Source: an uncultured Eubacteriales bacterium (lineage in GTDB: Bacteria > Bacillota > Clostridia > Lachnospirales > Bianqueaceae). From it: DNA of 64,000 bases. Where the stretch lies: the NCBI GenBank assembly GCA_900316145.1, contig ONBQ01000030.1, positions 288-64,287 of the forward strand, written 5' to 3'. Made by a program: the position numbers and the translations under genes. Of this stretch, positions 19,030 to 43,273 are shown piece after piece (the stretch's first letter is position 1; each line of letters begins with the position of its first letter). The notes beneath the pieces were generated by a model. It was not told the origin of the DNA, searched no databases, and saw only the letters and a program-made list of their open reading frames with translations.

Positions 19030-20388
19030 CTATACTGCTCCGTCAACCTTTGGAAGCTTACGCCGGATCCACAGATATACGATGAAGTGGGCCAGCGTGG
19101 TGATCAGCCAGGAGATCGGATAGGAGATGTAAAGCCCGTGCAGGGTATGAAAGTGCGGGAAGATGGCGTAGATCCAGACGATACGCAGTCCGCAGGCGCC
19201 GATCAGGGATACGATGGTCGGCAGCAGGGAATAGCCCATGCCGCGGATCTGGCCGGAAAATACATCCATCCAGCCGCAGATGAAATATACCAGACCTACA
19301 TACAGAAGACGGATGGAACCCGCCGCGATGACTTCGGCATCCGAAGTGTAGATATTAAGCGCCTGCGCGCGGAACAGGTAGAGCAGACCGCCCAGGACGG
19401 CGCCGATCACAGTGGCCAGAGCCAGATTGATGATCAGGACCCGGTTCAGGCGGCTGTATTTTTTGGCGCCCAGGTTTTGACCGGCAAAGCACAGAGCCGA
19501 TTGGCTGAAGGAATTGATACTGGTATAGACGAAACCGCCCACGTTGGAGGCAGCTGTGTTGGCCGCCATAACGGTCCCGCCGAAGGAGTTGACGGAAGAC
19601 TGGATGATCGCGTTGGATAAGGAGAACAGGCAGCCCTGGATGCCGGCCGGAAGACCGGTGCGGGTGATGGCCCAAAGCTTGTCTTTATAGATGCGAAGCT
19701 GCTTCCAGTACAGGTGACAGCTCCCGTGCAGTTTGGTCAGATACCGCAGGATCAGGAAGGCGGAGACGGCCTGGGAAATGATGGTGGCCAAAGCGACGCC
19801 GTCCACATCCATGTGCAGGACGATCACGAAGAACAGATTGAGAAGAAAATTCAGGACCCCGGCGATGGTCAGATAGTACAACGGATGACGGGTGTCGCCG
19901 GTGGCACGCAGGATGGCGCTGCCGAAATTGAAGGGCATCATGGCGATCATGCCGCAGAAGTAGATCCTCATGTACAGGACTGACTTATCGATGACATCCT
20001 CAGGCGTATCCATGAGCCGAAGCAGAGGATAAGCGAGGATCAGCCCCAGGACGGTCAGGATGATCCCGCCCAGAAAACTGACGGCGATAGAGGTGTGGAC
20101 CGTTTCGTGAATGTCCTGGTGGCGCTGAGCTCCGTAATGCTGCGCAACGATAACGTTGGTCCCCACGGACAGGCCGATGAACAGATTGACGATCAGATTG
20201 GTGATGGCGCCGGTGGAACCGACAGCGGCCAGGGCTGTATTGCCGGCAAAGCGTCCGACCACGACCAGGTCGGCGGCGTTGAACAAGAGCTGCAATACAC
20301 CGGCAGCCATGACGGGTAAGGTAAATTTAAGGATCTTGCCGACAAGCGGCCCGCTTGTCATGTCGATATCATATCTTCGGGAAGCCAT
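19030..20388 (-). CDS. MATE-family efflux transporter
   Basis: Preferred start is the ATG at 20388 (MASRRYDIDMTSGPLVGKILKFTLPVMAAG, GAAGGA RBS). The track start at 20502 adds an implausible 38-aa leader. Confidence 0.85.
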   Translation of the reverse strand: MASRRYDIDMTSGPLVGKILKFTLPVMAAGVLQLLFNAADLVVVGRFAGNTALAAVGSTGAITNLIVNLFIGLSVGTNVIVAQHYGAQRHQDIHETVHTSIAVSFLGGIILTVLGLILAYPLLRLMDTPEDVIDKSVLYMRIYFCGMIAMMPFNFGSAILRATGDTRHPLYYLTIAGVLNFLLNLFFVIVLHMDVDGVALATIISQAVSAFLILRYLTKLHGSCHLYWKQLRIYKDKLWAITRTGLPAGIQGCLFSLSNAIIQSSVNSFGGTVMAANTAASNVGGFVYTSINSFSQSALCFAGQNLGAKKYSRLNRVLIINLALATVIGAVLGGLLYLFRAQALNIYTSDAEVIAAGSIRLLYVGLVYFICGWMDVFSGQIRGMGYSLLPTIVSLIGACGLRIVWIYAIFPHFHTLHGLYISYPISWLITTLAHFIVYLWIRRKLPKVDGAV

Positions 20389-20557
20389 GGATATCCTTCT
20401 TTCTTTTTGCGCTCTTGCCACTTTACTGCCAAACCGGAGGTTTGTCAAGAAGGTGGTTTTGTCCATGAATCGTTTTCTTTCCTCCGTTGACAGAACAACC
20501 AAAAATCTATATACTTTGCTATAGAATTATGTGCAAATCGGAAAGGAGAAACACGAT

Positions 20558-22969
20558 ATGCAAAAACAAAACCTGAACCTTGGGTGGGAGTTTCGTGACA
20601 ATAATCAGATGTTCGCGTTTCCCGGCGCGGAAGGACCTAAAAATCTGAAGATCGATCTTCCTCATGACTTTATCTACACCAAGCCCCGAGATCCGAAAGC
20701 GGCCGGCGGCGCTCCGAACGGCTATTTCGGTGAGGGCCGCGGTATCTATGAGAAGACCTTGGAGATCCCGGAAGAGTGGATCGGCAAGCGTATCATTCTG
20801 GATATCGACGGTGCTTATATGAACGCGGAAGTGACCCTGAACGGGGAGCTTCTTGCCATGCATCCCTATGGCTATACCCCCTATCTGGTGGATCTGTCCA
20901 ACCATGTCAAGGCGGGTTCCAATAAACTGGTGATCACGGTCCAGAGCCGTCAGCCCTCCACACGCTGGTATTCCGGCGGCGGTCTGTATCGCAGCGTCTC
21001 TCTGTGGGTAGGTGAGCCGGTCGGCATCGAGCCGTGGGATATCTTCGTCACCACGCCGGAAGTCGCAAAAGACCGGGCTGTGGTGCGCGCCGAAGTCTCC
21101 GTATCCACGCTTCACAGCGTGCAGTCTACGGCCAACGTCGAGATGACGGTCGTGGATCCGGACGGACAGCCCGTTGCTTGCGGAAAGATCCTGACCCATG
21201 TCGAGCCGGGCCAGAAGATCAAGTCCAAGATCCAGATGGAAGTCACCGATCCGAAGCTGTGGAACACCGTGACCCCCAATCTGTACACCTTGAAGACCGT
21301 GCTGAAGGTACCCGGACAGGCGGATGAAACAGCCGAGACCGTCTTCGGTATCCGCAAGTTCGAGGCAGACGCTGTGAACGGCCTGCGCTTAAACGGCGAG
21401 CCCATCAAGCTGAAGGGCGGCTGCATCCATCACGATGCTGCGTTCTTGGGTTCCGCGGCCTGGCCGAGAGCGGAAGAGCGCAAGATCCAGATCCTTAAAA
21501 ACGCCGGTTATAACGCGGTCCGCATCAGCCATTATCCGCCGTCACTGGAGATGCTTAAAGTCTGTGACCGAGAAGGTATCATTCTGCTGGATGAGGCTTT
21601 TGACTGCTGGCGTATCGGTAAGGTCCCGATGGATTACCATCTGTACTTCGAGGAGTGGTGGGAGCGCGACATCGAGTACATGGTCAAGCGTGACCGCAAC
21701 CATCCTTGCGTCTTCTCCTATTCCATCGGCAATGAGATCGGTGAGCGTGATGGTTCCGGCAATGGTTATTACTGGGCCCACAAGCTGGCGGAAAAGATCC
21801 GATCCTTCGACAATACTCATTTCGTGACCTCCGCCATCTGCGGCGTCTTCGATCCGGAAGCGCTGAAAGCGATGCTGGCCGGTGCCGAAGATAAGGACAA
21901 CATCAATGTGATGAACCTCGAGCAGAGCAAAGAGCGCGACAACTGGGGCACCAAGACCGCGGATTACGCGTCCGCTCTGGATATCGTTGGTTACAACTAT
22001 CTGTATGAGCGCTACGCAGATGATAAGACCCGCTTCCCAGGTCGTGTGATCATGGGCACCGAGACCCATCCGTTCAACACCTATGACTACTGGAAAGCCA
22101 CCATGGACAACAGTCACGTCATCGGCGACTTCATCTGGACCGCTTATGACAACCTGGGCGAGGCCGGTGTCGGCCGTGTCGTCTGGGATTCCGAAAGCCA
22201 GGATCATGGTTTCATGGGTCCGTGGCCGTGGCGCAGCTGCTTCCAGGGCGATATGGATCTGTGCGGCTACCGTACCGGTCAGTCCTACTATCGTGAGATC
22301 ATGTGGGAAGCCTTCGATGGCCACAGCGATAAGATGGCCCTTTACACCACCCATCCCTGCCACAACGGCGATACCTTCTGGGGCACCGGCTGGCATTGGA
22401 GAGATGTGGAAGACACCTGGACCTATGACGACGAATGGCTGGGCAAGCCGGTCAAGGTCGATGCCTATGCGGATGCGGATGAGGTCGAGTTCTTCCTGAA
22501 CGGAAAATCCTGCGGCAAAGCACCGGTTGAAAAGCTGGAAGCCTCTCTGGAGATCCCCTATGAAAAGGGTACCGTGGAAGCGGTCGCCTATCGCGATGGC
22601 AAAGAGATCGCCCGCTGCTGCCTGAAGACGACGGGCAAAGCTGCGGCAGTCACAGCCTGCGCGGATCGTCCCTGCATCAAAGCGGACCGTCAGGATCTGT
22701 CCTATGTGGCGCTGACGATCGTAGACGCGGAAGGCAACCGTGTACCGTATGAAGATTCCGTGATCTGCGTCGAGGTCAGTGGAGCGGGTCGCCTGGCAGG
22801 CATGGGCTCCGGCAATCCCTGCACGGAAGAGAACTATGGTACACCGTACTGCAAGGCCTATGAAGGCCGGGCTATGGCCGCTGTCGTAGCGGATGAGCCG
22901 GGTCAGATCACGGTCAAGGTCTGCGTCGAAGGATGCGAGCCTTGCGAGATCACGATCGAAGCGAAATAA
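20558..22969 (+). CDS. GH2 glycoside hydrolase (beta-galactosidase/beta-glucuronidase family)
   Basis: ATG at 20558 behind GGAAAGGAG. NLGWEFR.., VRISHYPPS, NHPCVFSYSIGNEIGE (acid/base NE), GTETHP. Confidence 0.85.
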   Translation: MQKQNLNLGWEFRDNNQMFAFPGAEGPKNLKIDLPHDFIYTKPRDPKAAGGAPNGYFGEGRGIYEKTLEIPEEWIGKRIILDIDGAYMNAEVTLNGELLAMHPYGYTPYLVDLSNHVKAGSNKLVITVQSRQPSTRWYSGGGLYRSVSLWVGEPVGIEPWDIFVTTPEVAKDRAVVRAEVSVSTLHSVQSTANVEMTVVDPDGQPVACGKILTHVEPGQKIKSKIQMEVTDPKLWNTVTPNLYTLKTVLKVPGQADETAETVFGIRKFEADAVNGLRLNGEPIKLKGGCIHHDAAFLGSAAWPRAEERKIQILKNAGYNAVRISHYPPSLEMLKVCDREGIILLDEAFDCWRIGKVPMDYHLYFEEWWERDIEYMVKRDRNHPCVFSYSIGNEIGERDGSGNGYYWAHKLAEKIRSFDNTHFVTSAICGVFDPEALKAMLAGAEDKDNINVMNLEQSKERDNWGTKTADYASALDIVGYNYLYERYADDKTRFPGRVIMGTETHPFNTYDYWKATMDNSHVIGDFIWTAYDNLGEAGVGRVVWDSESQDHGFMGPWPWRSCFQGDMDLCGYRTGQSYYREIMWEAFDGHSDKMALYTTHPCHNGDTFWGTGWHWRDVEDTWTYDDEWLGKPVKVDAYADADEVEFFLNGKSCGKAPVEKLEASLEIPYEKGTVEAVAYRDGKEIARCCLKTTGKAAAVTACADRPCIKADRQDLSYVALTIVDAEGNRVPYEDSVICVEVSGAGRLAGMGSGNPCTEENYGTPYCKAYEGRAMAAVVADEPGQITVKVCVEGCEPCEITIEAK

Positions 22970-28229: not shown

Positions 28230-29879
28230 TTACAGATGCTGCTCGATCTCCTCATTGACCCGGCGCCGCAGGGAAAGAAGATAGTCCGGAGAATGCGGAT
28301 AATCCTCGAAAGAAAGCGGTTCTTCCAGACCGTCCTCGATCAGAGACAGGACGTGGTCCCGGCTTGTCAGCGTCTCCAACAGGGTCAACGCCCTTAAGTC
28401 GCACAAAGCGTCGGAAAGAACGACAAGACGCAGGGATTCCAGCGGCTCTCCGTCAGGACCCGGGTAGACCACGAACGGATCACCGGCCGGATAACTGGCC
28501 TCCCCATCGGTCGTGGCGAAAGGATCGATCGGATGGATGGAGGTGACGTTGTTGTAATAGTTATATCCCCACTGCAGGAACCCGTCTACCGCGAATTTAT
28601 ATAGCTGCACGCCCAGGATCCGGGTGCGCCAGGAAGGCATCGCGATGAAGCGGTTGGAGACTTTATATCCCTGGCCGCAGCAATAATAGACCCAGAACTC
28701 ATCAGGCCGGGGATCTTCAAGGAAAGGCGTCAGGTGATTGGTGGCGACGACCGGAGTCCGGCATATTCCCTGTTCGAAGAAGGAGTGATCGCTCATGGCA
28801 TCCATGATCGGGAACCCTGCCAGCAGGTGTTCGACCATGGCACGGCAGGCTTTGTACTGAGGAAGAGATTCCGGAGAAGGTTCATCGGAAATATGAAAAT
28901 AGACACAGTCTCCATACCCCCAGCTCTTTAATTGAGCTGTCAGTTCCGGAAGCAGGGCTTCCAGAAAACCTCGGTACGCATCTCCCGTGGCCGGTGTATC
29001 CCAGCCGAAAATGCGGGAGGGCTTTCCGTCAACCGTGGCAATGATCTTAGGACAGCATTTTGCGCCCCACTGGGTGAACAGATGGGACATTTCAAAGTAA
29101 CGGATCCCTTCTTCCCGGGCCATGTTCATAAAATCACGCAGGCGATCGAAGGAGAAGCGATACTGTCCGTCCACGACCTCGATATCGAGCAGCTGGGCCG
29201 TCAGACGTTCCGACCCCACGCGGGTATCCAGCGGGGGCGTCCAAAGCGGAGTCAGCAGCATGTTGATGCCGCGGCGGACTGCCGTACGGATCTGCGCGCG
29301 CACGATTTCCATGAAACGGGGGCTGAAGACCGGCTCATGATAGTAGGAGGACAGGCCATCCATGTGAAACCACTCGGTATGTTTCAGCCGCTGCTCGGGC
29401 AGGACTGCGTTCATCACACAGATCTCGGCAGTCAGGCTGGCATCCTCGGTTTCATTTCGGATGGAGAGAGTAAGCGGATAGGTTCCGGCCGGCGTTTCCT
29501 TCGTTGTCCGGACTTCGATCCAAAGGCTGGTCCACTGACCCCGCACGGCGGGAACGTGATCCTTTTCATATAAAGGCCGGAGCAGGTCCGGATACAGGCC
29601 GGGACGGGTATCGAGGTAAAGCCCATCCGAAGCATCGAATGCCGGCAGACGGACGGGGACCTGTTCTACATAGCGGACCTGAACAAGACCCGAAAGAGGA
29701 CCGGACACGATCACCTGATAGTCGGCCCGGTGCGCTATGCCGTCGGACTCGGGAAGAAAGGCAGCCTGGAAGGAGAATTGGTCCTCCTTTAAAACGGTAA
29801 AACGCTCGGAACAAGGAGCCGGAGCCTGGTCCAGCCGAACCTTTTCAAGGGCAGATGTAAGCAGTAGACGGACAGACAT
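28230..29879 (-). CDS. DUF4091-like (GH123-like) putative glycoside hydrolase
   Basis: 549 aa, cytoplasmic. The overall pattern recalled from DUF4091 proteins (N-terminal beta domain + TIM-like core, ..FHISDEP..) is my only basis. Needs an HMM check. Confidence 0.4.
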   Translation of the reverse strand: MSVRLLLTSALEKVRLDQAPAPCSERFTVLKEDQFSFQAAFLPESDGIAHRADYQVIVSGPLSGLVQVRYVEQVPVRLPAFDASDGLYLDTRPGLYPDLLRPLYEKDHVPAVRGQWTSLWIEVRTTKETPAGTYPLTLSIRNETEDASLTAEICVMNAVLPEQRLKHTEWFHMDGLSSYYHEPVFSPRFMEIVRAQIRTAVRRGINMLLTPLWTPPLDTRVGSERLTAQLLDIEVVDGQYRFSFDRLRDFMNMAREEGIRYFEMSHLFTQWGAKCCPKIIATVDGKPSRIFGWDTPATGDAYRGFLEALLPELTAQLKSWGYGDCVYFHISDEPSPESLPQYKACRAMVEHLLAGFPIMDAMSDHSFFEQGICRTPVVATNHLTPFLEDPRPDEFWVYYCCGQGYKVSNRFIAMPSWRTRILGVQLYKFAVDGFLQWGYNYYNNVTSIHPIDPFATTDGEASYPAGDPFVVYPGPDGEPLESLRLVVLSDALCDLRALTLLETLTSRDHVLSLIEDGLEEPLSFEDYPHSPDYLLSLRRRVNEEIEQHL

Positions 29880-35766: not shown

Positions 35767-36831
35767 ATGGAGCGCGCAGCCAGCCATACCCATAAGGAAC
35801 CGGCCTATCTTCAGATCTATTATCGATTCCGGGAAGACATCACCACCGGTACGCTGAAACCGGGCACAAAACTGCCATCCAAGAGGATCCTGGCGGAGCA
35901 GACCGGCGTCAGTGTGATCACAGTGGAGCATGCGTATCAGCTGCTCGCCGATGAGGGCTACATCGAAAGCCGCCCGCGCAGCGGTTTCTATGTTCGCTTC
36001 GGCATTGCCGCCCGGCAGGTCTGGACGCCGCCGGCCGCAGCACCTGCTCCTATTACGGAAGCGCCGGAGGACTTTCCCTTTTCTCAGCTGGCCAGGACCA
36101 TGCGCGGCGTGATCACGGATTATAACCGAAGGCTTCTGGTCAAGTCTCCCAGCAAGGGCGTGCCGGAACTGACAGAGCAGATCTGCAGTTACCTGGCGCT
36201 AAGCCGTGGTTTAAGGGTCCGGCCTGAGCAGATCGTGATCGGGTCCGGTGCGGAATACCTGTACAGCCTGGTGGTACAGCTGCTGGGGCGGGAGAGAGCC
36301 TACGCGCTGGAAGATCCGTCATATGAAAAGATCGCCCGCGTTTATGAGAGCAACGGAGCGTCTTTGGAACGTCTGGAAATGGGGGCCGATGGTATCGTTT
36401 CGTATGAACTGCAGGATTGCATGGCCGGGGTGCTGCATGTTACCCCGTTTCACAGCTATCCAAGCGGGGTAACGGCATCCGCGCACAAACGAAGAGAGTA
36501 TGCCGCGTGGGCCAGAAAGCGGGACGCCTATATCGTGGAAGATGACTATGATTCGGAATTATCTTCTGTTACCCGGCGCATTGAGACCATCTTTTCTCTG
36601 GCGCCGGAAAGAGTCATCTATATCAACACCTTTACCAAGATCCTGGCGCCGTCATTCAGGACCGGCTTCATGGTCCTGCCGGAAGGGCTTCTGGACGCCT
36701 ATCAGGAAAAGCTGGGTTTTTATTCCTGCACGGTGCCTGTTTTTGAACAATACGTGCTGGCGGAATTTATCCGCGGGGGGCATCTGGAACGGTATATCAA
36801 CCGGCAGCGCCATCATAAACGTCATGGATAA
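35767..36831 (+). CDS. MocR-subfamily GntR regulator (wHTH fused to a PLP aminotransferase-like domain)
   Basis: ATG at 35767 behind AAAGGAG; the track start at 35626 adds junk. HTH LPSKRILAEQTGVSVITVEHAYQLLADEGYI, followed by a fold-type-I domain. Confidence 0.75.
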   Translation: MERAASHTHKEPAYLQIYYRFREDITTGTLKPGTKLPSKRILAEQTGVSVITVEHAYQLLADEGYIESRPRSGFYVRFGIAARQVWTPPAAAPAPITEAPEDFPFSQLARTMRGVITDYNRRLLVKSPSKGVPELTEQICSYLALSRGLRVRPEQIVIGSGAEYLYSLVVQLLGRERAYALEDPSYEKIARVYESNGASLERLEMGADGIVSYELQDCMAGVLHVTPFHSYPSGVTASAHKRREYAAWARKRDAYIVEDDYDSELSSVTRRIETIFSLAPERVIYINTFTKILAPSFRTGFMVLPEGLLDAYQEKLGFYSCTVPVFEQYVLAEFIRGGHLERYINRQRHHKRHG

Positions 36832-36832
36832 G

Positions 36833-36858
36833 AGAGGAGACAGCCGTCTCCTCTTTTT
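36833..36858 (+). terminator. Rho-independent terminator
   Basis: AGAGGAGAC-AGCC-GTCTCCTCT, followed by TTTTGG. Confidence 0.8.
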
Positions 36859-36879
36859 GGATTTAAACCCCTGCAAGTC

Positions 36880-36908
36880 TTGTATATCCTTTGCGATTTT
36901 GGTAAAAT
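36880..36908 (+). promoter_or_regulatory. Sigma-70-type promoter of the 4-gene sugar operon
   Basis: TTGTAT (36880-36885), 17 nt, TAAAAT (36903-36908). Confidence 0.5.
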
Positions 36909-36919
36909 AGATTAGAATA

Positions 36920-36937
36920 TGTTACTGCACAGTAACA
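36920..36937. promoter_or_regulatory. Perfect 8-2-8 inverted repeat (candidate operator) at the predicted transcription start
   Basis: TGTTACTG-CA-CAGTAACA, 12 nt downstream of the -10 box. Confidence 0.45.
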
Positions 36938-36963
36938 AAAATATGGCTTTACAAGGAGATATC

Positions 36964-37647
36964 ATGAAATACTTTTTAGACAGTGCCAAGCTGGATGAGA
37001 TCCAGTATGCGTATCATGCTTTTGGGATCGATGGAGTTACTACGAACCCTCGTCACATCATGCTCAGCGGAAAGCCGTTTCTGACCGCTATCCACCTGAT
37101 CGCGGACTGGGTCGAAAAAGAAAACCTGACCGGTTATGAGCGCTTCCCCGTCTCGGTCGAGATCGATCCGCATATCGAGAAGGCGGAAGAAATGATCGAG
37201 GCGGCGCGTAAGATCGCGGCCATCAGCCCAAATTTCGCCATCAAGATCCCGATGACCGAGGATGGCGTCATTGCCGCCCGGGTGCTTGAGGCAGAGGGGA
37301 TCCGCACCAATCTGACGCTTGTTTTCTCGGCGGCGCAGGCTATCTGGGCCGGCAAGGTCGGCTCATTGTTCGTGTCTCCCTTTATCGGCTGGAAAGAGGC
37401 GAACGGGGAGGACTGCCGTCAGTATATCAAAGATATCGTCGATATTTATAAGAATTATGGATTCTATGGAAAGACGCAGATCATTTGCGCGGCCATCCGC
37501 ACGCCGAAACAGATCGTGGATTGCGCGGTCGCCGGCGCGGATATCGTGACGACCGGTCTGGCCGTCTATCAGGAAAGCTTCCATCATGCTTATACGGACC
37601 AGGGGATCCGGACATTCTGCGAAGCCTGGGACAATACAGCGAAATAA
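36964..37647 (+). CDS. Transaldolase/fructose-6-phosphate-aldolase-family enzyme (TalC/FSA class; candidate 6-deoxy-6-sulfofructose transaldolase)
   Basis: ATG at 36964 behind AAGGAG. MKYFLDSAKLDEI..GIDGVTTNPRHI, Schiff-base Lys context NFAIKIPMT. Confidence 0.8.
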   Translation: MKYFLDSAKLDEIQYAYHAFGIDGVTTNPRHIMLSGKPFLTAIHLIADWVEKENLTGYERFPVSVEIDPHIEKAEEMIEAARKIAAISPNFAIKIPMTEDGVIAARVLEAEGIRTNLTLVFSAAQAIWAGKVGSLFVSPFIGWKEANGEDCRQYIKDIVDIYKNYGFYGKTQIICAAIRTPKQIVDCAVAGADIVTTGLAVYQESFHHAYTDQGIRTFCEAWDNTAK

Positions 37648-37665
37648 ATTAAAAGGGGAAACGTT

Positions 37666-38526
37666 ATGAAGATCGGATTTATCGGGCTGGGCATCATGGG
37701 CGAGGCCATGTGCGCCAATATCGCGCGCAAGCACAATGATACGGTCTATGGCTATGATGTGCGTCCGGAGCGCTGCGCTATAGAAGGGGTCATCGCCGTC
37801 ACGAACAGTGTGGAACTGGCCCGCCTGTCAGATATCATCATTACCATGGTGCCAAAGTCAGAGCATTCAAGAGCGGTCTATGAGGAGATCTTAGACGTTC
37901 TGGGACCGGACAAGATCTGCATCGATATGAGCACGATCGAGCCTAAGGTGTCGATCGAGATCAATGAAATGGTCAGAACGCGCGGAGCCGCTTTCCTGGA
38001 CGCCCCGGTCGTAAAATCCCGCCCGGCCGCGGAAAAGGGAGAACTGGGCATCTATGTTGGCGGTCCGGAAGAAGAGTATCAGAAGATCCTGCCTGTTCTT
38101 CATTACATGGGAAGGAACGTGATCCGCATGGGTCAGAACGGAGCCGGCCTGGTCATGAAGATCTGCCATAACGCGCTGGTCTCGCAGATCCAGAACGGTG
38201 TCAATGAAACGGTCACGCTGGCGGCCGCCAACGGCATCGACGTCATGACATTCGCGGAAGCGATCTCCTACGGCGGCGGGCAGAATTTCTATCTGGACAG
38301 CAAAAAGCAGGTGATCCGCGATCAGGATTTCACCACTGCTTTTTCCATCGAGAACATGAACAAGGATGTTCATATCTGCCAGGCGCTTGCCGCAGAGAGC
38401 GGTGTTGAAATGCCGGGTGAAGAAAATGTGATCCGGGTCTATGAAAAAGCCATGGATCTGGGCCTCGGCGCAAAGGATTTCAGCGCGACCTATTCTGTCG
38501 TTTCAGGCGCGAAGAAGGAGGCATAA
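37666..38526 (+). CDS. NAD(P)-dependent beta-hydroxyacid dehydrogenase (3-hydroxyisobutyrate/tartronate-semialdehyde reductase family; candidate sulfolactaldehyde reductase)
   Basis: MKIGFIGLGIMGEAM Rossmann motif, DAPVVKS, KICHNALV.. Confidence 0.8.
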   Translation: MKIGFIGLGIMGEAMCANIARKHNDTVYGYDVRPERCAIEGVIAVTNSVELARLSDIIITMVPKSEHSRAVYEEILDVLGPDKICIDMSTIEPKVSIEINEMVRTRGAAFLDAPVVKSRPAAEKGELGIYVGGPEEEYQKILPVLHYMGRNVIRMGQNGAGLVMKICHNALVSQIQNGVNETVTLAAANGIDVMTFAEAISYGGGQNFYLDSKKQVIRDQDFTTAFSIENMNKDVHICQALAAESGVEMPGEENVIRVYEKAMDLGLGAKDFSATYSVVSGAKKEA

Positions 38527-38529
38527 AGG

Positions 38530-39840
38530 ATGAAGATCCTCTACATTCCGATCGGTGTCGGCACCTATCACATGGAAACAGCCGGAGCCTGTTTTGAAGC
38601 CTCCCGCAAATTGCTGCAGGAGATCGATCCCGAGATCATCTGCCCGGAAAGTCTGCTGCTGAGCGTGCCGGCCGTAGCCGGCTTCATCGGAGACCACACG
38701 CCGGATCTGGTGATCCTGCAAAACGTAACATTCGCCAACGCAGCCTATACGGCAGAAGTACTTCGTCGCGTTACCTGCCCTATCGTACTGTGGACGTTGA
38801 GAGAGCCGGCCGGTGAGCCGGGCGGGCGTCTGAAGATGAACGCGCTTACAGGAGCCTTCGCTTCCGCCAATACCTTGCATCAGTTCCGCGAGGAAAAGCC
38901 GGTCTTCCTGTTCGGAGATCCGGAGGAGGTCCGGACTTCCCTGACAGCTGCGATCCGGGCCGCGAAAGCCAGAAAAGCCTTAAAGGAACTGACCATTGCC
39001 GCCGTCGGCCATACGCCGCAGGGCTTCGGATTCGGGCGGGCACTGGACCAGGATCTGATGAAGACCTTCGGCTGTGAACTGATCAGCATAGAAGCCAGAG
39101 AACTGATGGAAAAAGCAAAGAACGGCGAGCCGGATGAAAAAGCATCCGAGGGGCTGGTCGGTCTGGAACAGACACCGGAGGAGCGGCGGCTCGGTTTTCT
39201 GAAACTGTATCGGGCGTATAAAGACTTTGTAGAAGAAAACCACATAGGAGCCCTGGCTTCCCGCTGCTGGCCGGACTTCTTCACGGACTATGGAACACCG
39301 GTGTGCAGCGTACTTTCTGTCCTGAACGCGGAAGGCATCCCTTGTGCGTGTGAGTGTGATATCTATGGCGCGCTGTCCATGTATCTGGGACAGCTGCTGA
39401 CCGGTTCGCCTGCGTTCTTTGGAGACCCGGTCGCGCTGAACGAAGAAGATAACACGCTTACGTTCTGGCATTGCGGCATGGCCTCCTGCAACCTGGCCCG
39501 TACGGATACAGGAGCCGCGGTAGGCGTGCATCCGAATCGCAAGATCGGACCGACCATGGAATTCGGGTTAAAGCCGGCGCAGCATGTCACGTTGCTGCGC
39601 GTCGGACGGGATAAGGATGGTTCCTTCCGCCTGTTCGTAGCGAAGGGCCGCGCCCTGGATCGGCCCAAGCAGTATCTTGGGACCTCTGTCGTGGTAGAGA
39701 CCGAGCCGGATGTGAAGGACATGGTCTCGTTCCTGCTGGAAAATGGGTATGAACCGCATTACGCAGTCATTTACGGAGACGCGGCAGAAAGCCTGGAAAT
39801 GCTGGGCCGCATGCTGAATATCAAGGTGGACCGCTTATGA
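38530..39840 (+). CDS. L-fucose/L-arabinose-isomerase-like aldose-ketose isomerase (specificity unknown)
   Basis: 436 aa. The N-terminal Rossmann-like half with ..GGRLKMNALTGAFASAN.. resembles the fucose-isomerase-like superfamily. This is a recollection-based call. Confidence 0.5.
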   Translation: MKILYIPIGVGTYHMETAGACFEASRKLLQEIDPEIICPESLLLSVPAVAGFIGDHTPDLVILQNVTFANAAYTAEVLRRVTCPIVLWTLREPAGEPGGRLKMNALTGAFASANTLHQFREEKPVFLFGDPEEVRTSLTAAIRAAKARKALKELTIAAVGHTPQGFGFGRALDQDLMKTFGCELISIEARELMEKAKNGEPDEKASEGLVGLEQTPEERRLGFLKLYRAYKDFVEENHIGALASRCWPDFFTDYGTPVCSVLSVLNAEGIPCACECDIYGALSMYLGQLLTGSPAFFGDPVALNEEDNTLTFWHCGMASCNLARTDTGAAVGVHPNRKIGPTMEFGLKPAQHVTLLRVGRDKDGSFRLFVAKGRALDRPKQYLGTSVVVETEPDVKDMVSFLLENGYEPHYAVIYGDAAESLEMLGRMLNIKVDRL

Positions 39841-41738
39841 TGGACTTGGATCAGATCCGGATCGAGGCCGGATATGGAAGCGCTTCCTTCCCGATGAAGA
39901 AGGGCAGCTTCCAGTATGATGATGTCATTACCGAGATCAAGCCATGGAATGGCCAGGTCGAGGTCGATACGCTCAATGATCAGGAATGCCGCCTACGCCT
40001 GAAAATGGAGGAAGACTTTAACCGGATCCGGATCACCTTTCCTGCCGACGCCAGACACTTTTATGGCGGCGGTGAGACCTTTTCCGAGTGGGATCTGAAG
40101 GGACAGCGCATCCGCGTTTGGGTCGCGGAGCATCAGAACGCGGACCGTATCGATCGCAAGATCGCGAGACAGGAAGAACGAGGTGTCGATCCGGAGTTCA
40201 AAGAACCGTTTGAGGCCTATGAATCCTACTATGTACAGCCTACTTTCATCACGGATACGAAGGAGTATGTCCATGTCGACACCACGGCTTTCGCCGCGTT
40301 TGACTTTACTTCCGAGGGATATGTAACGATCGAACTGTTCGAGAACGCGCCTGTCTACTTTGGAAAAGCGGATACCTTTACCGGGCTGGCTGAACTTTTG
40401 ACCAGGCGCCTCGGAAGGCAGAAATGCCTGCCGGACTGGACGCATGACGGCATGATCCTGGCCATTCAGCAAGGACCGGAAGTCATAGATCAAAAGATCC
40501 GGAAAGCCAGGAAAGCCGGCGTCCCGATCGCGGGCATCTGGAGCCAGGACTGGTGCGGCTGCCGGCGCACGGGCTTCGGTTATCAGGTCATGTGGAACTG
40601 GCGCTATGATGAAGAATTGTATGCCGGCCTGCCGGAGAAGATCCGGGAATGGAACAAGGAAGGGATCCGCTTCCTTGGCTACATCAACCCATTCATGGCC
40701 ATCGAAAAAGATATCTACCGCTACGCTTCCGAACACGGTTACTGCGTGAAAGACAAAGAAGGCAAGGATTATCTGGTCACCATCACCACCTTCCCGGCGG
40801 CCATGATCGACCTGACCAACCCGGATGCCTATGACTGGTATAAAGGACTGATCAAAAAGAATCTGATCGGCTTAGGGCTGTCCGGCTGGATGGCGGATTT
40901 CGGCGAATACCTGCCTGTTGACTGTGTCCTGTATTCCGGAGCGGATCCGTGGAAGATCCACAATGAGTGGCCGGCCATCTGGGCTAAGCTGAACCGGGAA
41001 GCGGTCTTGGAAAGCGGCAAGGAGGGCGAAGTTTTCTTCTTCACCCGCGCGGGCTACACCGGAACCATCCGGGAGTCGACCATGATGTGGACCGGGGACC
41101 AGCATGTGGATTGGTCTCTGGATGACGGGCTGGCGTCCGTGATCCCGGCCACGCTTTCTCTGGCAGTCTGCGGCTATGGCCTGAGCCATTCCGATGTCGG
41201 TGGATACACCACCATCGGTCCCATTACACGAACGCGGGAACTGCTGATGCGTTGGGAGGAGATGAACGCGTTTTCTCCGCTCATGCGCAGCCATGAGGGC
41301 AACCGACCCTCTTTGAATGTTCAGTTCGATGATGATGAAGAACTGTTAGCGCATCTGAAGCGCTGTGTCGATATCCACGTCAGTTTAAAAGAGTATCTGA
41401 AAGAACTGGAGCGCTTCAACGAAGAAAAAGGGATCCCCGTTATGCGGCCGCTCTTCTATCACTATGATGAGGATTGGACCTACTCAGAATCCTTTGAGTA
41501 CCTGCTGGGAAAGGATCTGCTCGTCGCGCCAGTCATCAAGCAGGGAGCGACCACGCGAACGGTGCATCTGCCTGAGGACCGCTGGGAGCATGTCTGGACC
41601 GGGCAGACTTATGAGGGAGGAACCGTAACGGTCGAAGCGCCGCTGGGGCAGATCCCCGTATTTATACGCAAAGATTCCGAATGGTATGACGCGATCAAGA
41701 AAGGATTCTGCGCCTGGCGCGAGGAGGCGAAAGCTTAA
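39837..41738 (+). CDS. GH31 alpha-glycosidase of the YihQ (sulfoquinovosidase) subfamily
   Basis: 633 aa, with ATGA overlap with the previous gene. GIWSQDWCG..VMWNW, GWMADFGEYLP (nucleophile Asp), MMWTGDQHVDWSLDDGLASVIPA, HSDVGGYTT, PLMRSHEGNRP. Confidence 0.8.
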   Translation: MMDLDQIRIEAGYGSASFPMKKGSFQYDDVITEIKPWNGQVEVDTLNDQECRLRLKMEEDFNRIRITFPADARHFYGGGETFSEWDLKGQRIRVWVAEHQNADRIDRKIARQEERGVDPEFKEPFEAYESYYVQPTFITDTKEYVHVDTTAFAAFDFTSEGYVTIELFENAPVYFGKADTFTGLAELLTRRLGRQKCLPDWTHDGMILAIQQGPEVIDQKIRKARKAGVPIAGIWSQDWCGCRRTGFGYQVMWNWRYDEELYAGLPEKIREWNKEGIRFLGYINPFMAIEKDIYRYASEHGYCVKDKEGKDYLVTITTFPAAMIDLTNPDAYDWYKGLIKKNLIGLGLSGWMADFGEYLPVDCVLYSGADPWKIHNEWPAIWAKLNREAVLESGKEGEVFFFTRAGYTGTIRESTMMWTGDQHVDWSLDDGLASVIPATLSLAVCGYGLSHSDVGGYTTIGPITRTRELLMRWEEMNAFSPLMRSHEGNRPSLNVQFDDDEELLAHLKRCVDIHVSLKEYLKELERFNEEKGIPVMRPLFYHYDEDWTYSESFEYLLGKDLLVAPVIKQGATTRTVHLPEDRWEHVWTGQTYEGGTVTVEAPLGQIPVFIRKDSEWYDAIKKGFCAWREEAKA

Positions 41739-41742
41739 AACT

Positions 41743-42576
41743 ATGGAGACACGAAAGATCTATTCCAAAAACGCGGACTACCAGCGTTTTGAAGTATTGA
41801 AAAACAACCGTGCCAAGCGTACGAAGATGGGCGTGTTCTTATGTGAAGGCGTGCGCAACCTGAATGAAGCCAGGAAACGAGGCTGGACCTTTGAATCCTT
41901 CATTTTCGCCATGGACGCCCGCCTGTCTGACTGGGCCTGCGACATGATCCGATCTGTAAAGACCGAGGTCAACTACGCAGTCAAAGAGGATCTCTTAAAA
42001 GAGCTTTCCGGCAAAGAAGATACCTCCGAGCTGATGGCGATCATCCGCATGTGTAAGGATGATCCGCAAGCGATCCTGGATCACCTGTCCGACGATCCGG
42101 TCATCGCCTTGTTTGACCGGCCGTCCAACCATGGCAACCTGGGTACGATCATCCGCTCCGCGGACGCGCTGGGGGTCGAAGCCTTGATCCTGACCGGACA
42201 TGGGGTAGATCTCTATGAGCCCGCCGTCGTGACCAGCACGATGGGATCGTTCTTCGCCGTGCCGGTGCTCAGGCTGTCTTCCAATCGGGAGATCGAGGAC
42301 TTTTTCCAGGCTCTGAGGGATAAGTATGAAGGATTTCAGATCCTGGGTTCGACCGCTCACGCGACAGACATGATCTATGATGTCGACCTTACCGGTCCGT
42401 CCCTGATCCTGATCGGCAATGAGACGGAAGGCCTGACGCAGCATTACCGGGAGTGCTGCGACAAACAGGTCAAGATCCCGATGGCGGAAGGCTCCTGCGC
42501 GTCCTCCTTCAATGTAGGCTGCGCGGCAACCGTTCTGTTTTATGAAGCTATGAGACAAAGGGGGTTAAGAGCGTGA
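41743..42576 (+). CDS. TrmH/SpoU-family RNA 2'-O-methyltransferase
   Basis: ATG at 41743, just after the GH31 stop. SPOUT motifs NHGNLGTIIRSA, LIGNETEGL, IPMAEGSCASSFNV. Confidence 0.8.
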   Translation: METRKIYSKNADYQRFEVLKNNRAKRTKMGVFLCEGVRNLNEARKRGWTFESFIFAMDARLSDWACDMIRSVKTEVNYAVKEDLLKELSGKEDTSELMAIIRMCKDDPQAILDHLSDDPVIALFDRPSNHGNLGTIIRSADALGVEALILTGHGVDLYEPAVVTSTMGSFFAVPVLRLSSNREIEDFFQALRDKYEGFQILGSTAHATDMIYDVDLTGPSLILIGNETEGLTQHYRECCDKQVKIPMAEGSCASSFNVGCAATVLFYEAMRQRGLRA

Positions 42577-42986: not shown

Positions 42987-42990
42987 ACAA

Positions 42991-43016
42991 AAAGCCGCGA
43001 GTAAGCGGCTTTTGTT
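42991..43016 (+). terminator. Rho-independent terminator
   Basis: AGCCGC (42993-42998) / GCGGCT (43005-43010), followed by TTTGTTG. Confidence 0.7.
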
Positions 43017-43114: not shown

Positions 43115-43122
43115 TGAAGGAG

Positions 43123-43193
43123 AGGTGCCACCCAGAATCGAACTGGGGGTGGGGGAGTTGCAGTCCCATGCCTTACCGCTTGGCTATGGCACC
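43123..43193 (-). tRNA. tRNA-Cys (GCA)
   Basis: Reverse complement is GGTGCCATAGCCAAGCGGTAAGGCATGGGACTGCAACTCCCCCACCCCCAGTTCGATTCTGGGTGGCACCT. Cloverleaf with loop CTGCAAC, T-loop GTTCGATTC and U73 discriminator; no encoded CCA. Confidence 0.85.
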
Positions 43194-43201
43194 TGATAAA
43201 G

Positions 43202-43273
43202 TGACCCGTGGGAGAATCGAACTCCCGTTACCGCCGTGAAAGGGCGATGTCTTAACCGCTTGACCAACGGGCC
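43202..43273 (-). tRNA. tRNA-Glu (UUC)
   Basis: Reverse complement is GGCCCGTTGGTCAAGCGGTTAAGACATCGCCCTTTCACGGCGGTAACGGGAGTTCGATTCTCCCACGGGTCA. Anticodon loop CTTTCAC; no encoded CCA. Confidence 0.9.

Follow-up and report, generated by a model that had tools for sequence, protein, structure and literature searches.

The analysed stretch of DNA (64 kb, hereafter the window) carries a regulator gene followed on the same strand by a run of tightly packed genes, with two tRNA genes as the downstream boundary. The features of this region, in window positions, are:

35767..36831, + strand: gene for a MocR/PdxR-like short-form regulator (354 aa from ATG 35767)
36830..36857, + strand: intrinsic terminator hairpin and U-tract at the end of the MocR gene
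36891..36918, + strand: promoter-like site TTGCGA-16-TAGAAT, from a consensus scan
36920..36937, no strand assigned: perfect 8-2-8 palindrome TGTTACTGCACAGTAACA, a candidate operator
36964..37647, + strand: SftT/SqvA, predicted 6-deoxy-6-sulfofructose transaldolase (227 aa)
37666..38526, + strand: SftR-type NAD(P)H beta-hydroxyacid dehydrogenase, putative sulfolactaldehyde reductase (286 aa)
38530..39840, + strand: SftI/SqvD, predicted sulfoquinovose (SQ) isomerase (436 aa)
39837..41738, + strand: SftG, YihQ-family GH31, putative Q-type sulfoquinovosidase (SQase; 633 aa)
41743..42576, + strand: SpoU/TrmH-family RNA 2'-O-methyltransferase (Pfam SpoU_methylase and SpoU_sub_bind_like)
42990..43013, no strand assigned: bidirectional terminator-like hairpin
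43122..43273, − strand: tRNA-Cys(GCA) and tRNA-Glu(TTC)

An earlier note on this DNA had described four tightly packed genes, and the junctions, read directly, are exactly as it stated: an 18-nt gap containing GGGGA between TAA 37647 of sftT and ATG 37666 of sftR, a 3-nt gap with AAGGAGG between TAA 38526 and ATG 38530 of sftI, and an ATGA overlap (39837–39840) between sftI and sftG. The transaldolase open reading frame spans 36919/36964–37647 and starts at ATG 36964, which has a GGAGA ribosome-binding site upstream. All four family calls of that note agree with Pfam (TAL_FSA, NAD_binding_2 plus NAD_binding_11, Fucose_iso_C and GH31, in gene order). The packed unit probably comprises five genes, the fifth being the SpoU/TrmH methyltransferase gene, whose ATG 41743 lies 4 nt past the GH31 stop and whose ribosome-binding site (GAGGAGG) sits within the end of the GH31 gene. 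Transcription would probably continue into this gene, with the hairpin at 42990..43013 as the probable end of the unit. No SpoU/TrmH gene was found adjoining sft genes in related loci, and the methyltransferase is likely a co-transcribed passenger.

Upstream, the MocR gene ends in a 12-bp hairpin (dG −17.7 kcal/mol, z −3.6) followed by UUUUU, and the operon's own promoter region would lie downstream of it. The promoter-like site there matches 9 of 12 consensus positions, which is not above the regional chance density, so that its evidence is positional only. The earlier note had picked out an alternative promoter, TTGTAT-17-TAAAAT (36879–36907). Between the promoter-like site and SftT, the palindrome occurs only once in the window, where chance would predict 0 matches; it is not conserved upstream of the relatives' sft genes and is absent near MocR homologues.

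Among solved structures, the best relative of SftT was the sulfofructose transaldolase BmSF-TAL of Bacillus megaterium (PDB 8bc3; 280 bits, E = 1.3e-82, 60.7% identity), compared to 162 bits for the next match, the ordinary transaldolase 1vpx. All eight diagnostic residues of BmSF-TAL (D6, E61, K89, N111, S133, W138, A170 and R172; list from PMC11659671 and PMC12890257) are kept, leaving the catalytic, sugar-orienting and sulfonate-orienting classes intact, the last being the W-A-R motif (W138/A170/R172). For SftI, the sole NCBIfam match was the SftI model NF048012, over its full length (388 bits, E = 3.9e-116; below the cut-off of 700), and a solved-structure search found no relative. As the only model matched, albeit below cut-off, it favors the SQ-isomerase role that the earlier note had assigned to this protein. 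We found 207 SftI relatives in genome contigs, and sft clusters hold most of the 80 loci kept.

The reductase is less distinctive. No NCBIfam model reached its cut-off with SftR (the YihU model scored 127 against a cut-off of 348). SftR shares with E. coli YihU (PDB 6SM7) the beta-hydroxyacid dehydrogenase fold, the catalytic Lys171 and, we infer, an equal position in the pathway, but is only 28% identical to it, and the sulfonate pocket residues N174/S178 of YihU are replaced by H168/V172. His/Val is found throughout the clostridial SftR family, for which our literature search found no biochemically characterised member. In 51 loci the gene adjoining SftT resembles SftR (54–73% identity), with His at the position of YihU N174 in all of them.

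The earlier note had recognized the GH31 as a YihQ relative, and four solved sulfoquinovosidases indeed head its matches at 500–643 bits (E. coli YihQ 643, E. rectale SftG, 6PNR, 556), with the next GH31 at 135 bits; it also passes NCBIfam PRK10426 (760 against a cut-off of 553). Compared with YihQ, the A. tumefaciens SQase and E. rectale SftG (PDB 5AED, 5OHY and 6PNR), the window SftG is likewise cytoplasmic, with no signal peptide found, and keeps the nucleophile D405, the acid/base D472, W304, Y508, Q262, Q288 and H537; identity to YihQ is 49% over 619 aligned columns. It differs in having Gln250 where all four solved SQases carry the sulfonate-binding Arg301, together with G368T, E369T and N/S474H (Asn474 to His423). 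The E. rectale, E. coli and Agrobacterium enzymes are thus R-type and the window enzyme Q-type. Q-type GH31s form a large monophyletic clade, split from all R-type enzymes with a support of 0.999, and pair with GPH symporters, not TctABC. The comparison with characterised proteins that the earlier note had proposed came out in favor of its reading for SftT and SftG, which lie nearest SF-TAL and the SQases; the closest solved relatives of SftR are generic.

The same T-R-I-G order recurs in related rumen loci (L001–L003, L005, L006, L015, L019 and L027). Identity to the window is 92% for SftT, 72–73% for SftR and 70–72% for SftI in L001–L003, and 68–70% for SftG in L002–L003. An orthologous Agathobacter cluster has SftT, SftR and SftI 74, 67 and 54% identical to those of the window and a GH31 matching E. 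rectale SftG at 1,103 bits (~78% identical by eye). SQ induces the E. rectale cluster, whose SftG has been proven to be an SQase (PMC11968277, PMC7491151). Known Firmicutes sulfo-TAL/SFT clusters, including Bacillus aryabhattai sftATXGIFDE, Eubacterium rectale EUBREC_2585-2596 and that of Clostridium symbiosum (Frommeyer et al. 2020, PMC7491151; Liu et al. 2020; PMC11968277), share the window's four enzyme families, namely SftG (GH31), SftI, SftT and SftR. The window has the reductase, the version typical of DHPS-excreting strict anaerobes, instead of the dehydrogenase. It differs from these clusters in its appended SpoU methyltransferase gene and in being a minimal T-R-I-G set: across 64 kb there is no importer (SftA, GPH or TctABC), exporter (SftE/TauE or CitMHS), DUF4867 SftX, or ROK, AraC or GntR regulator of the operon. 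Searches of the window for GPH/MFS_2, TctA, CitMHS, DUF4867 and YihR homologues found none, and the membrane transporters encoded there are limited to three MatE proteins and one CbiMQO system. The earlier note's caveat that no SQ importer or DHPS exporter lies in or beside the operon thus extends to the whole window, as it does for an SQ-glycerol importer and a dedicated regulator; transport presumably relies on genes elsewhere in the genome.

Based on the SftT residues, the SftI model, the SQase matches and the recurring gene order, which support the sulfo-transaldolase operon proposed in the earlier note, we consider the region to be a reductive sulfo-TAL/SFT operon (SQ to fructose-6-phosphate and DHPS) of an uncultured cattle-gut or rumen Clostridia bacterium, with a probability of about 0.8. 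The enzyme activities and end product are predicted from homology, SftT residues and gene order. Imported sulfoquinovosyl-glycerol would be hydrolyzed in the cytoplasm by SftG, the least certain step, and SftI would convert the sulfoquinovose to 6-deoxy-6-sulfofructose. SftT would then form a Schiff base on Lys94 and transfer the non-sulfonated C3 unit to glyceraldehyde-3-phosphate, yielding fructose-6-phosphate for glycolysis and releasing 3-sulfolactaldehyde, which SftR would reduce with NAD(P)H to 2,3-dihydroxypropanesulfonate (DHPS). Excreted DHPS could be used by sulfonate-respiring bacteria. The transaldolase route is already known, and the operon is an ordinary new example of it, save for a GH31 that lacks the sulfonate-gripping Arg.

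That substitution raises the possibility that the first three enzymes act on free SQ while the Q-type GH31, having lost the Arg301/Glu369 pair, is another alpha-glycosidase working with a GPH symporter. The loss of Arg301, present in all four solved SQases, and the three accompanying replacements fit this, as do distant clade members that occur as bare MFS_2-GH31 pairs with no sft gene in the available flank, one of them beside histidine-utilisation genes. We nonetheless regard it as unlikely: a given position in sft clusters is taken either by a Q-type or by an R-type enzyme, never by both, an sft gene was present in 21 of the 25 Q-type loci of an unbiased, GH31-anchored set that were flanked by 5 kb or more on each side, a 39%-identical member clusters with an SftI-like isomerase (and with an aldehyde dehydrogenase and a lipase-like gene), and W304, Y508, Q262 and Q288 are kept. 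Far less probable still is ordinary sugar metabolism with no sulfonate substrate, carried out by an FSA/TalC transaldolase, a tartronate-semialdehyde or 3-hydroxyisobutyrate dehydrogenase, a fucose/arabinose-type isomerase and an alpha-glucosidase. The best solved and NCBIfam relatives of SftR, all generic, would suit it, and the best NCBIfam match of SftT is the FSA model TIGR00875, at 188 bits against a cut-off of 246. Yet the W-A-R motif stands intact in place of the phosphate-binding residues of ordinary transaldolases, SF-TAL and the SQases are the best characterised matches by wide margins, SftI is the isomerase's only family match, and over 100 loci carry the gene set together as one unit.

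The MocR-type neighbor noted earlier is present as a GntR wHTH plus aminotransferase-fold protein (Pfam GntR, Aminotran_1_2), but it probably lies outside the sft operon. Its position immediately upstream on the same strand, the GT..AC-type palindrome at the operon start and a 55%-identical short MocR adjoining one sft cluster (L038) could suggest an SQ-responsive regulator acting at the 18-bp palindrome, which we consider quite improbable. A strong terminator intervenes, sft genes were found in 0 of 80 MocR-homologue loci, and L038 alone among 80 sft loci has a close homologue (L071 has a MocR that is only 28% identical), a frequency near chance expectation. The palindrome, as described above, does not accompany MocR homologues, and two scanned homologue loci have B6-type neighbors (a PdxK-like kinase and an ECF S-component). 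The protein passes the NCBIfam PdxR cut-off (NF052282; 381 bits against 320, profile positions 1–358 of 448) and shares the wHTH and the fold-type-I aminotransferase-like domain with its TFTK Lys motif; unlike PdxR, it lacks ~90 C-terminal residues (the small sub-domain), as do all homologues at least 50% identical, and has no adjacent pdxST genes in the window. Because the closest homologues are all 344–374 aa, the short form is natural. Most likely it is a PdxR-like vitamin B6-type regulator unrelated to the operon. It is also very doubtful that these genes are just the remnant of a cluster, partial or no longer functional, cut off from its importer, exporter and SftX and unable to support growth on SQ. 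Relatives at ~60% identity do have an MFS_2 gene directly 3' of SftG that is missing from the window and from L002/L003, and DUF4867, absent here, occurs in 26 of the 28 R-type loci and in 52 of the 88 Q-type loci. On the other hand, some of the accessory genes are missing from published clusters too (entries 'n/e' in PMC7491151); the four open reading frames are intact and tightly coupled, with good ribosome-binding sites, and RNA-library contigs cover them all. SftT is 92% conserved relative to loci sharing the minimal layout, which implies purifying selection.

DNA of the window was present in 20 DNA-type runs. Bovine gut metagenome is the label of about half of them, and the others are gut, sheep-gut, food-production or unlabelled. 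Contigs from four gut-metatranscriptome RNA libraries (three bovine) cover all four sft genes with only 1–5 mismatches each over 175–441 bases; they are of low depth, may include DNA and are silent on induction. Metatranscriptome depth was very high at the position of the tRNA-Cys/tRNA-Glu pair.

Using an ORF map and direct reading of the gene junctions, we confirmed the four co-directional genes described in an earlier note, which follow one another with an 18-nt gap, a 3-nt gap and an ATGA overlap; Pfam searches agreed with the enzyme families named there. These genes (SftT, SftR, SftI and SftG; order T-R-I-G) and the features around them are located in the window as follows:

35767-36831, upstream of the operon: MocR-type gene (GntR wHTH and aminotransferase fold)
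36920-36937, just past the operon's -10-like box: perfect 8-2-8 palindrome TGTTACTGCACAGTAACA
36964-37647, plus strand: SftT, 227 aa from an ATG behind a GGAGA ribosome-binding site; Pfam TAL_FSA
37666-38526, plus strand: SftR, 286 aa; Pfam NAD_binding_2 and NAD_binding_11
38530-39840, plus strand: SftI, 436 aa; Pfam Fucose_iso_C
39837-41738, plus strand: SftG, 633 aa; Pfam GH31
40584-40586: codon for Q250 of SftG
41743-42576: SpoU/TrmH-family RNA methyltransferase gene, starting at ATG 41743
42990-43013: bidirectional hairpin, near which the packed unit probably ends
downstream of the hairpin, minus strand: tRNA-Cys and tRNA-Glu

A strong hairpin with a U-tract behind it (dG -17.7 kcal/mol, z -3.6) closes the MocR-type gene. 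At the distal end, the packed unit probably comprises five genes, because the start codon of the SpoU/TrmH gene, overlooked in the earlier note, lies 4 nt past the GH31 stop and its ribosome-binding site (GAGGAGG) falls within the end of the GH31 gene. Linkage of this methyltransferase gene to sft genes was seen in no relative, and it is probably a co-transcribed passenger. Base composition showed no anomaly, and an Rfam scan of 33-45 kb of the window revealed no riboswitch, the two tRNAs being the sole matches.

Based on the matches of SftT, SftI and SftG together with the gene order, we retain the proposed assignment of the operon to the transaldolase route of sulfoquinovose (SQ) breakdown (sulfo-TAL), a pathway known since 2020, with an estimated probability of about 0.8. 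Of all the evidence for an operon handling a sulfonated sugar, that from SftT is the strongest. When compared to all solved structures, its closest match was the 6-deoxy-6-sulfofructose (SF) transaldolase of Bacillus megaterium (BmSF-TAL; 8bc3, 280 bits, E 1e-82; 60.7% identity by pairwise alignment), placing SftT nearer to a characterised SF transaldolase than to the best ordinary transaldolase (1vpx, 162 bits) or E. coli FSA (88 bits). All BmSF-TAL residues reported as diagnostic (PMC11659671) are conserved, including the catalytic triad Asp6-Glu61-Lys89 (D6, E66 and K94 in SftT), of which Lys89 forms the Schiff base (PMC12890257), and the sugar-orienting Asn111 and Ser133 (N116 and S138). 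Also kept is the sulfonate-orienting W-A-R set, W138, A170 and R172 (W143, A177 and R179 in SftT), with positions 170 and 172 taken from the alignment as the source numbers W138 only (PMC11659671); ordinary transaldolases instead have phosphate-binding Arg/Ser at these sites.

The earlier note had tied the isomerase family to the SQ-isomerase role without verification, and both its family and its synteny now support this link: the SQ isomerase model NF048012 was the only NCBIfam match of SftI (full length, E 3.9e-116, 388 bits, below the equivalog cut-off of 700) and its relatives mostly sit in sft clusters. Across 185,579 species genomes scanned, 207 SftI relatives were found, and most of the 80 SftI-anchored loci kept also carry SftT, SftR or a YihQ-like GH31. 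SftI is 54% identical to its counterpart in an Agathobacter cluster, and no solved relative was found by sequence.

For SftG, the likeness to YihQ proposed from the sequence was borne out: its top matches were the four solved sulfoquinovosidases (E. coli YihQ, 643 bits; 8R56, 599; E. rectale SftG, 6PNR, 556; Agrobacterium, 500), with the next GH31 at 135 bits, and it scored 760 on PRK10426, above the cut-off of 553. The nucleophile Asp405 and acid/base Asp472 are kept as D354 and D421. Hydroxyl recognition in GH31 sulfoquinovosidases is diagnosed by the Gln288 (or Glu270 with Lys245) pair plus His537, and SftG retains Gln262, Gln288 and His537 as Q211, Q237 and H486. The published sulfonate-recognition triad Arg301-Trp304-Tyr508 (PMC8006165, PMC12780224), in contrast, reads Q250-W253-Y457, so SftG lacks the R-W-Y signature: position 301 is Arg in each of the four solved enzymes and Gln in SftG. 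The surrounding stretch is ungapped and strongly conserved (GFGYQVMWNW in the window versus SFGKRVMWNW).

Gln250 is not an isolated mutation, because enzymes with Gln at position 301 (Q-type) form a supported clade with concerted changes. Among 101 full-length GH31s, the 78 Q-type and 23 R-type sequences (Arg at 301, YihQ among them) were separated by one split with 0.999 support. The Arg301/Glu369 pair, present in all solved sulfoquinovosidases, gives way to Gln and Thr in the Q-type and a His lies two residues past the acid/base Asp, the co-changes being G368T (78/78), E369T (76/78) and N/S474H (74/78). Of the 150 top-ranking representatives in a library of 1.8 billion proteins, 132 were alignable; 63 of these read Q-W-Y, 10 Q-W-F and 37 R-W-Y. 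Either type fills the same slot of sft clusters, never together in the loci examined, and in an unbiased set anchored on GH31, 21 of the 25 Q-type loci whose flanks were adequate carried sft genes. Transporter partners also separate the two types: MFS_2/GPH accompanied the Q-type in 54/88 loci and TctA in 0/88, compared to MFS_2 in 2/28 and TctA in 21/28 R-type loci. The picture is mixed for more distant Q-type enzymes, two of which occur as a bare MFS_2-GH31 pair. With somewhat less than even confidence, we propose that the window GH31 belongs to a large monophyletic Q-type branch that, in place of the textbook R-W-Y enzyme, supplies the GH31 of most sampled rumen and gut Clostridial sft clusters and is associated with GPH rather than TctABC.

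One way to retain a charged pocket would be a nearby compensating Arg at the position of E. coli M295, but we rejected this candidate as it is not conserved in the Q-clade, where C, E, K and V also occur. H99, K108, K291 and H423 of SftG are candidate compensators for the loss of Arg301. No characterised Q-type enzyme was found in the literature searched. We infer that SftG is most likely the cluster's SQ-glycoside hydrolase with a remodelled, uncharged sulfonate pocket. If the Q-type is a true sulfoquinovosidase, sulfonate would be recognised without a cationic side chain, and motif surveys requiring the Arg would miss a large share of SQ degraders.

Two other arrangements were observed around Q-type enzymes. 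On a JGI metagenome contig (L297, 915-11312), a Q-type GH31 39% identical to SftG is clustered with an aldehyde dehydrogenase, an SftI-like isomerase, an ABC sugar transporter and a PAF-AH/PETase-like (lipase-like) esterase, and could represent a sulfolipid-to-sulfolactate cluster with its own lipase. In Erysipelotrichaceae and Solobacterium MAGs (L174, L176, L186, L189, L190, L193-L196), a Q-type GH31 occurs with SftR and, in most cases, SftI and DUF4867; no SftT was found within these loci, which may use another SF-cleaving route, for example sulfo-EMP2 or sulfo-TK.

SftR, the proposed sulfolactaldehyde (SLA) reductase, is the weakest homology call of the operon. It reached no NCBIfam cut-off (HIBADH, 175; GarR, 164; YihU, NF012005, 127 versus a cut-off of 348), and its best solved relatives are generic. 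To our knowledge, YihU is the only solved SLA reductase, and the E. coli enzyme is only 28% identical to SftR. The sulfonate pocket of YihU, formed by Asn174, Ser178 and the backbone of Arg123 (PMC8006165), is replaced by His168, Val172 and Lys117. Nonetheless, SftR is part of a coherent family, 54-73% identical, whose genes adjoin SftT in 51 related loci, and all 51 members have Lys, catalytic Lys and His at the three positions checked. It is 67% identical to SftR of the Agathobacter cluster (L048), and by orthology and synteny it corresponds to the SftR of SQ-induced clusters; in E. rectale and C. symbiosum, the SftR product is induced by SQ and DHPS (2,3-dihydroxypropanesulfonate) is excreted by the cells (PMC7491151). 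We filed the product as SftR-type rather than YihU-type because it lacks the YihU pocket yet falls in a coherent family beside SftT that is SQ-induced in these two species; SLA-reductase activity is inferred from this context. The presumptive SLA reductase of gut sulfo-TAL clusters would thus have a pocket different from that of YihU, because members of the Clostridial family carry His for Asn174 and Val, Cys or Ala for Ser178.

The MocR-type gene had been put forward as an adjacent regulator of the operon; the adjacency is real, but the regulatory link found no support. Sft genes were present in 0/80 MocR-anchored homologue loci, and a close MocR homologue lay near sft genes in only one (L038) of 80 sft loci, which is about the chance expectation; another sft locus (L071) has a MocR 28% identical. 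The protein scored 381 on the PdxR equivalog (cut-off 320), and a PdxK-like kinase and an ECF S-component were neighbours in two homologue loci scanned. Because of the 0/80 count and the apparent B6-related nature of the family, we rejected a dedicated operon regulator as the leading reading and consider it quite improbable that this protein regulates the operon. No second copy of the palindrome at 36920-36937 occurs in the window, and none was seen upstream of relatives' sft genes or near MocR homologues, giving no comparative support for any regulator. Of the 448 positions of the PdxR profile, the MocR-type protein spans only 1-358, as a truncated pseudogene might, but nearly all homologues at 50-64% identity are just as short (344-374 aa, compared to 445-480 aa for more distant ones) and no C-terminal remnant lies downstream, so this explanation was rejected; the short form is natural. 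Members of this short-form MocR/PdxR subfamily (window 35767-36831; L082-L110) are about 355-365 aa long, are missing the C-terminal sub-domain of the aminotransferase fold and occur widely in Oscillospiraceae and Lachnospiraceae of the rumen and gut.

The T-R-I-G order was repeated in eight related loci. Compared to the closest loci, from rumen and abomasum MAGs (L001-L003), SftT is 92%, SftR 72-73% and SftI 70-72% identical; for SftG the figure is 68-70% in L002 and L003, with no value for L001 because its contig ends before this gene. Relatives at ~60% identity have an MFS_2 symporter gene directly after SftG, which is missing from the window, L002 and L003. The earlier observation that no SQ or SQ-glycerol importer and no DHPS/SL exporter is linked to the operon held across the 64-kb window, where tblastn found no homologue of GPH, TctA, CitMHS, DUF4867, ROK, YihO, YihP, YihR or YihS and the sole transporters are MatE proteins and CbiMQO. 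Because the GH31 lacks a signal peptide, an importer would have to be encoded elsewhere. Also near the operon are genes for a GH2 (20531-22969) and a GH123 glycosidase (28230-29879) and a MatE gene (19030-20502), and cytoplasmic enzymes of glycan processing without linked importers are plentiful in the window.

SQ fermentation to DHPS feeds sulfide-producing bacteria of the gut. With this operon, a further uncultured Clostridia lineage of the cattle gut joins the known sulfo-TAL degraders; the layout, four enzymes without linked transport, is the most stripped-down. Sulfo-TAL clusters had been reported before in rumen genera, Butyrivibrio among them (PMC7491151), and the richness of yihQ in the rumen has been on record since 2026 (PMC13219744); the operon itself adds little to this 2020-2026 catalogue. 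Only the residue departures in SftG and SftR are likely to be of specialist interest: a GH31 without the Arg by which sulfoquinovosidases are defined, as in most related clusters, and a reductase without the YihU pocket both matter for metagenomic counts of SQ-degrading capacity.

The host belongs to an uncultured lineage of Clostridia, with a best atpA identity of only 75%, to Lachnospiraceae MAGs. Operon sequence was present in 20 DNA-type runs (45-91% of sampled words), approximately half of which were labelled bovine gut metagenome and the others gut, sheep-gut, food-production or unlabelled. Short contigs from four RNA libraries labelled gut metatranscriptome (three of the four bovine) covered all four genes at low depth with 1-5 mismatches each, which indicates presence rather than induction and is consistent with transcription in vivo.
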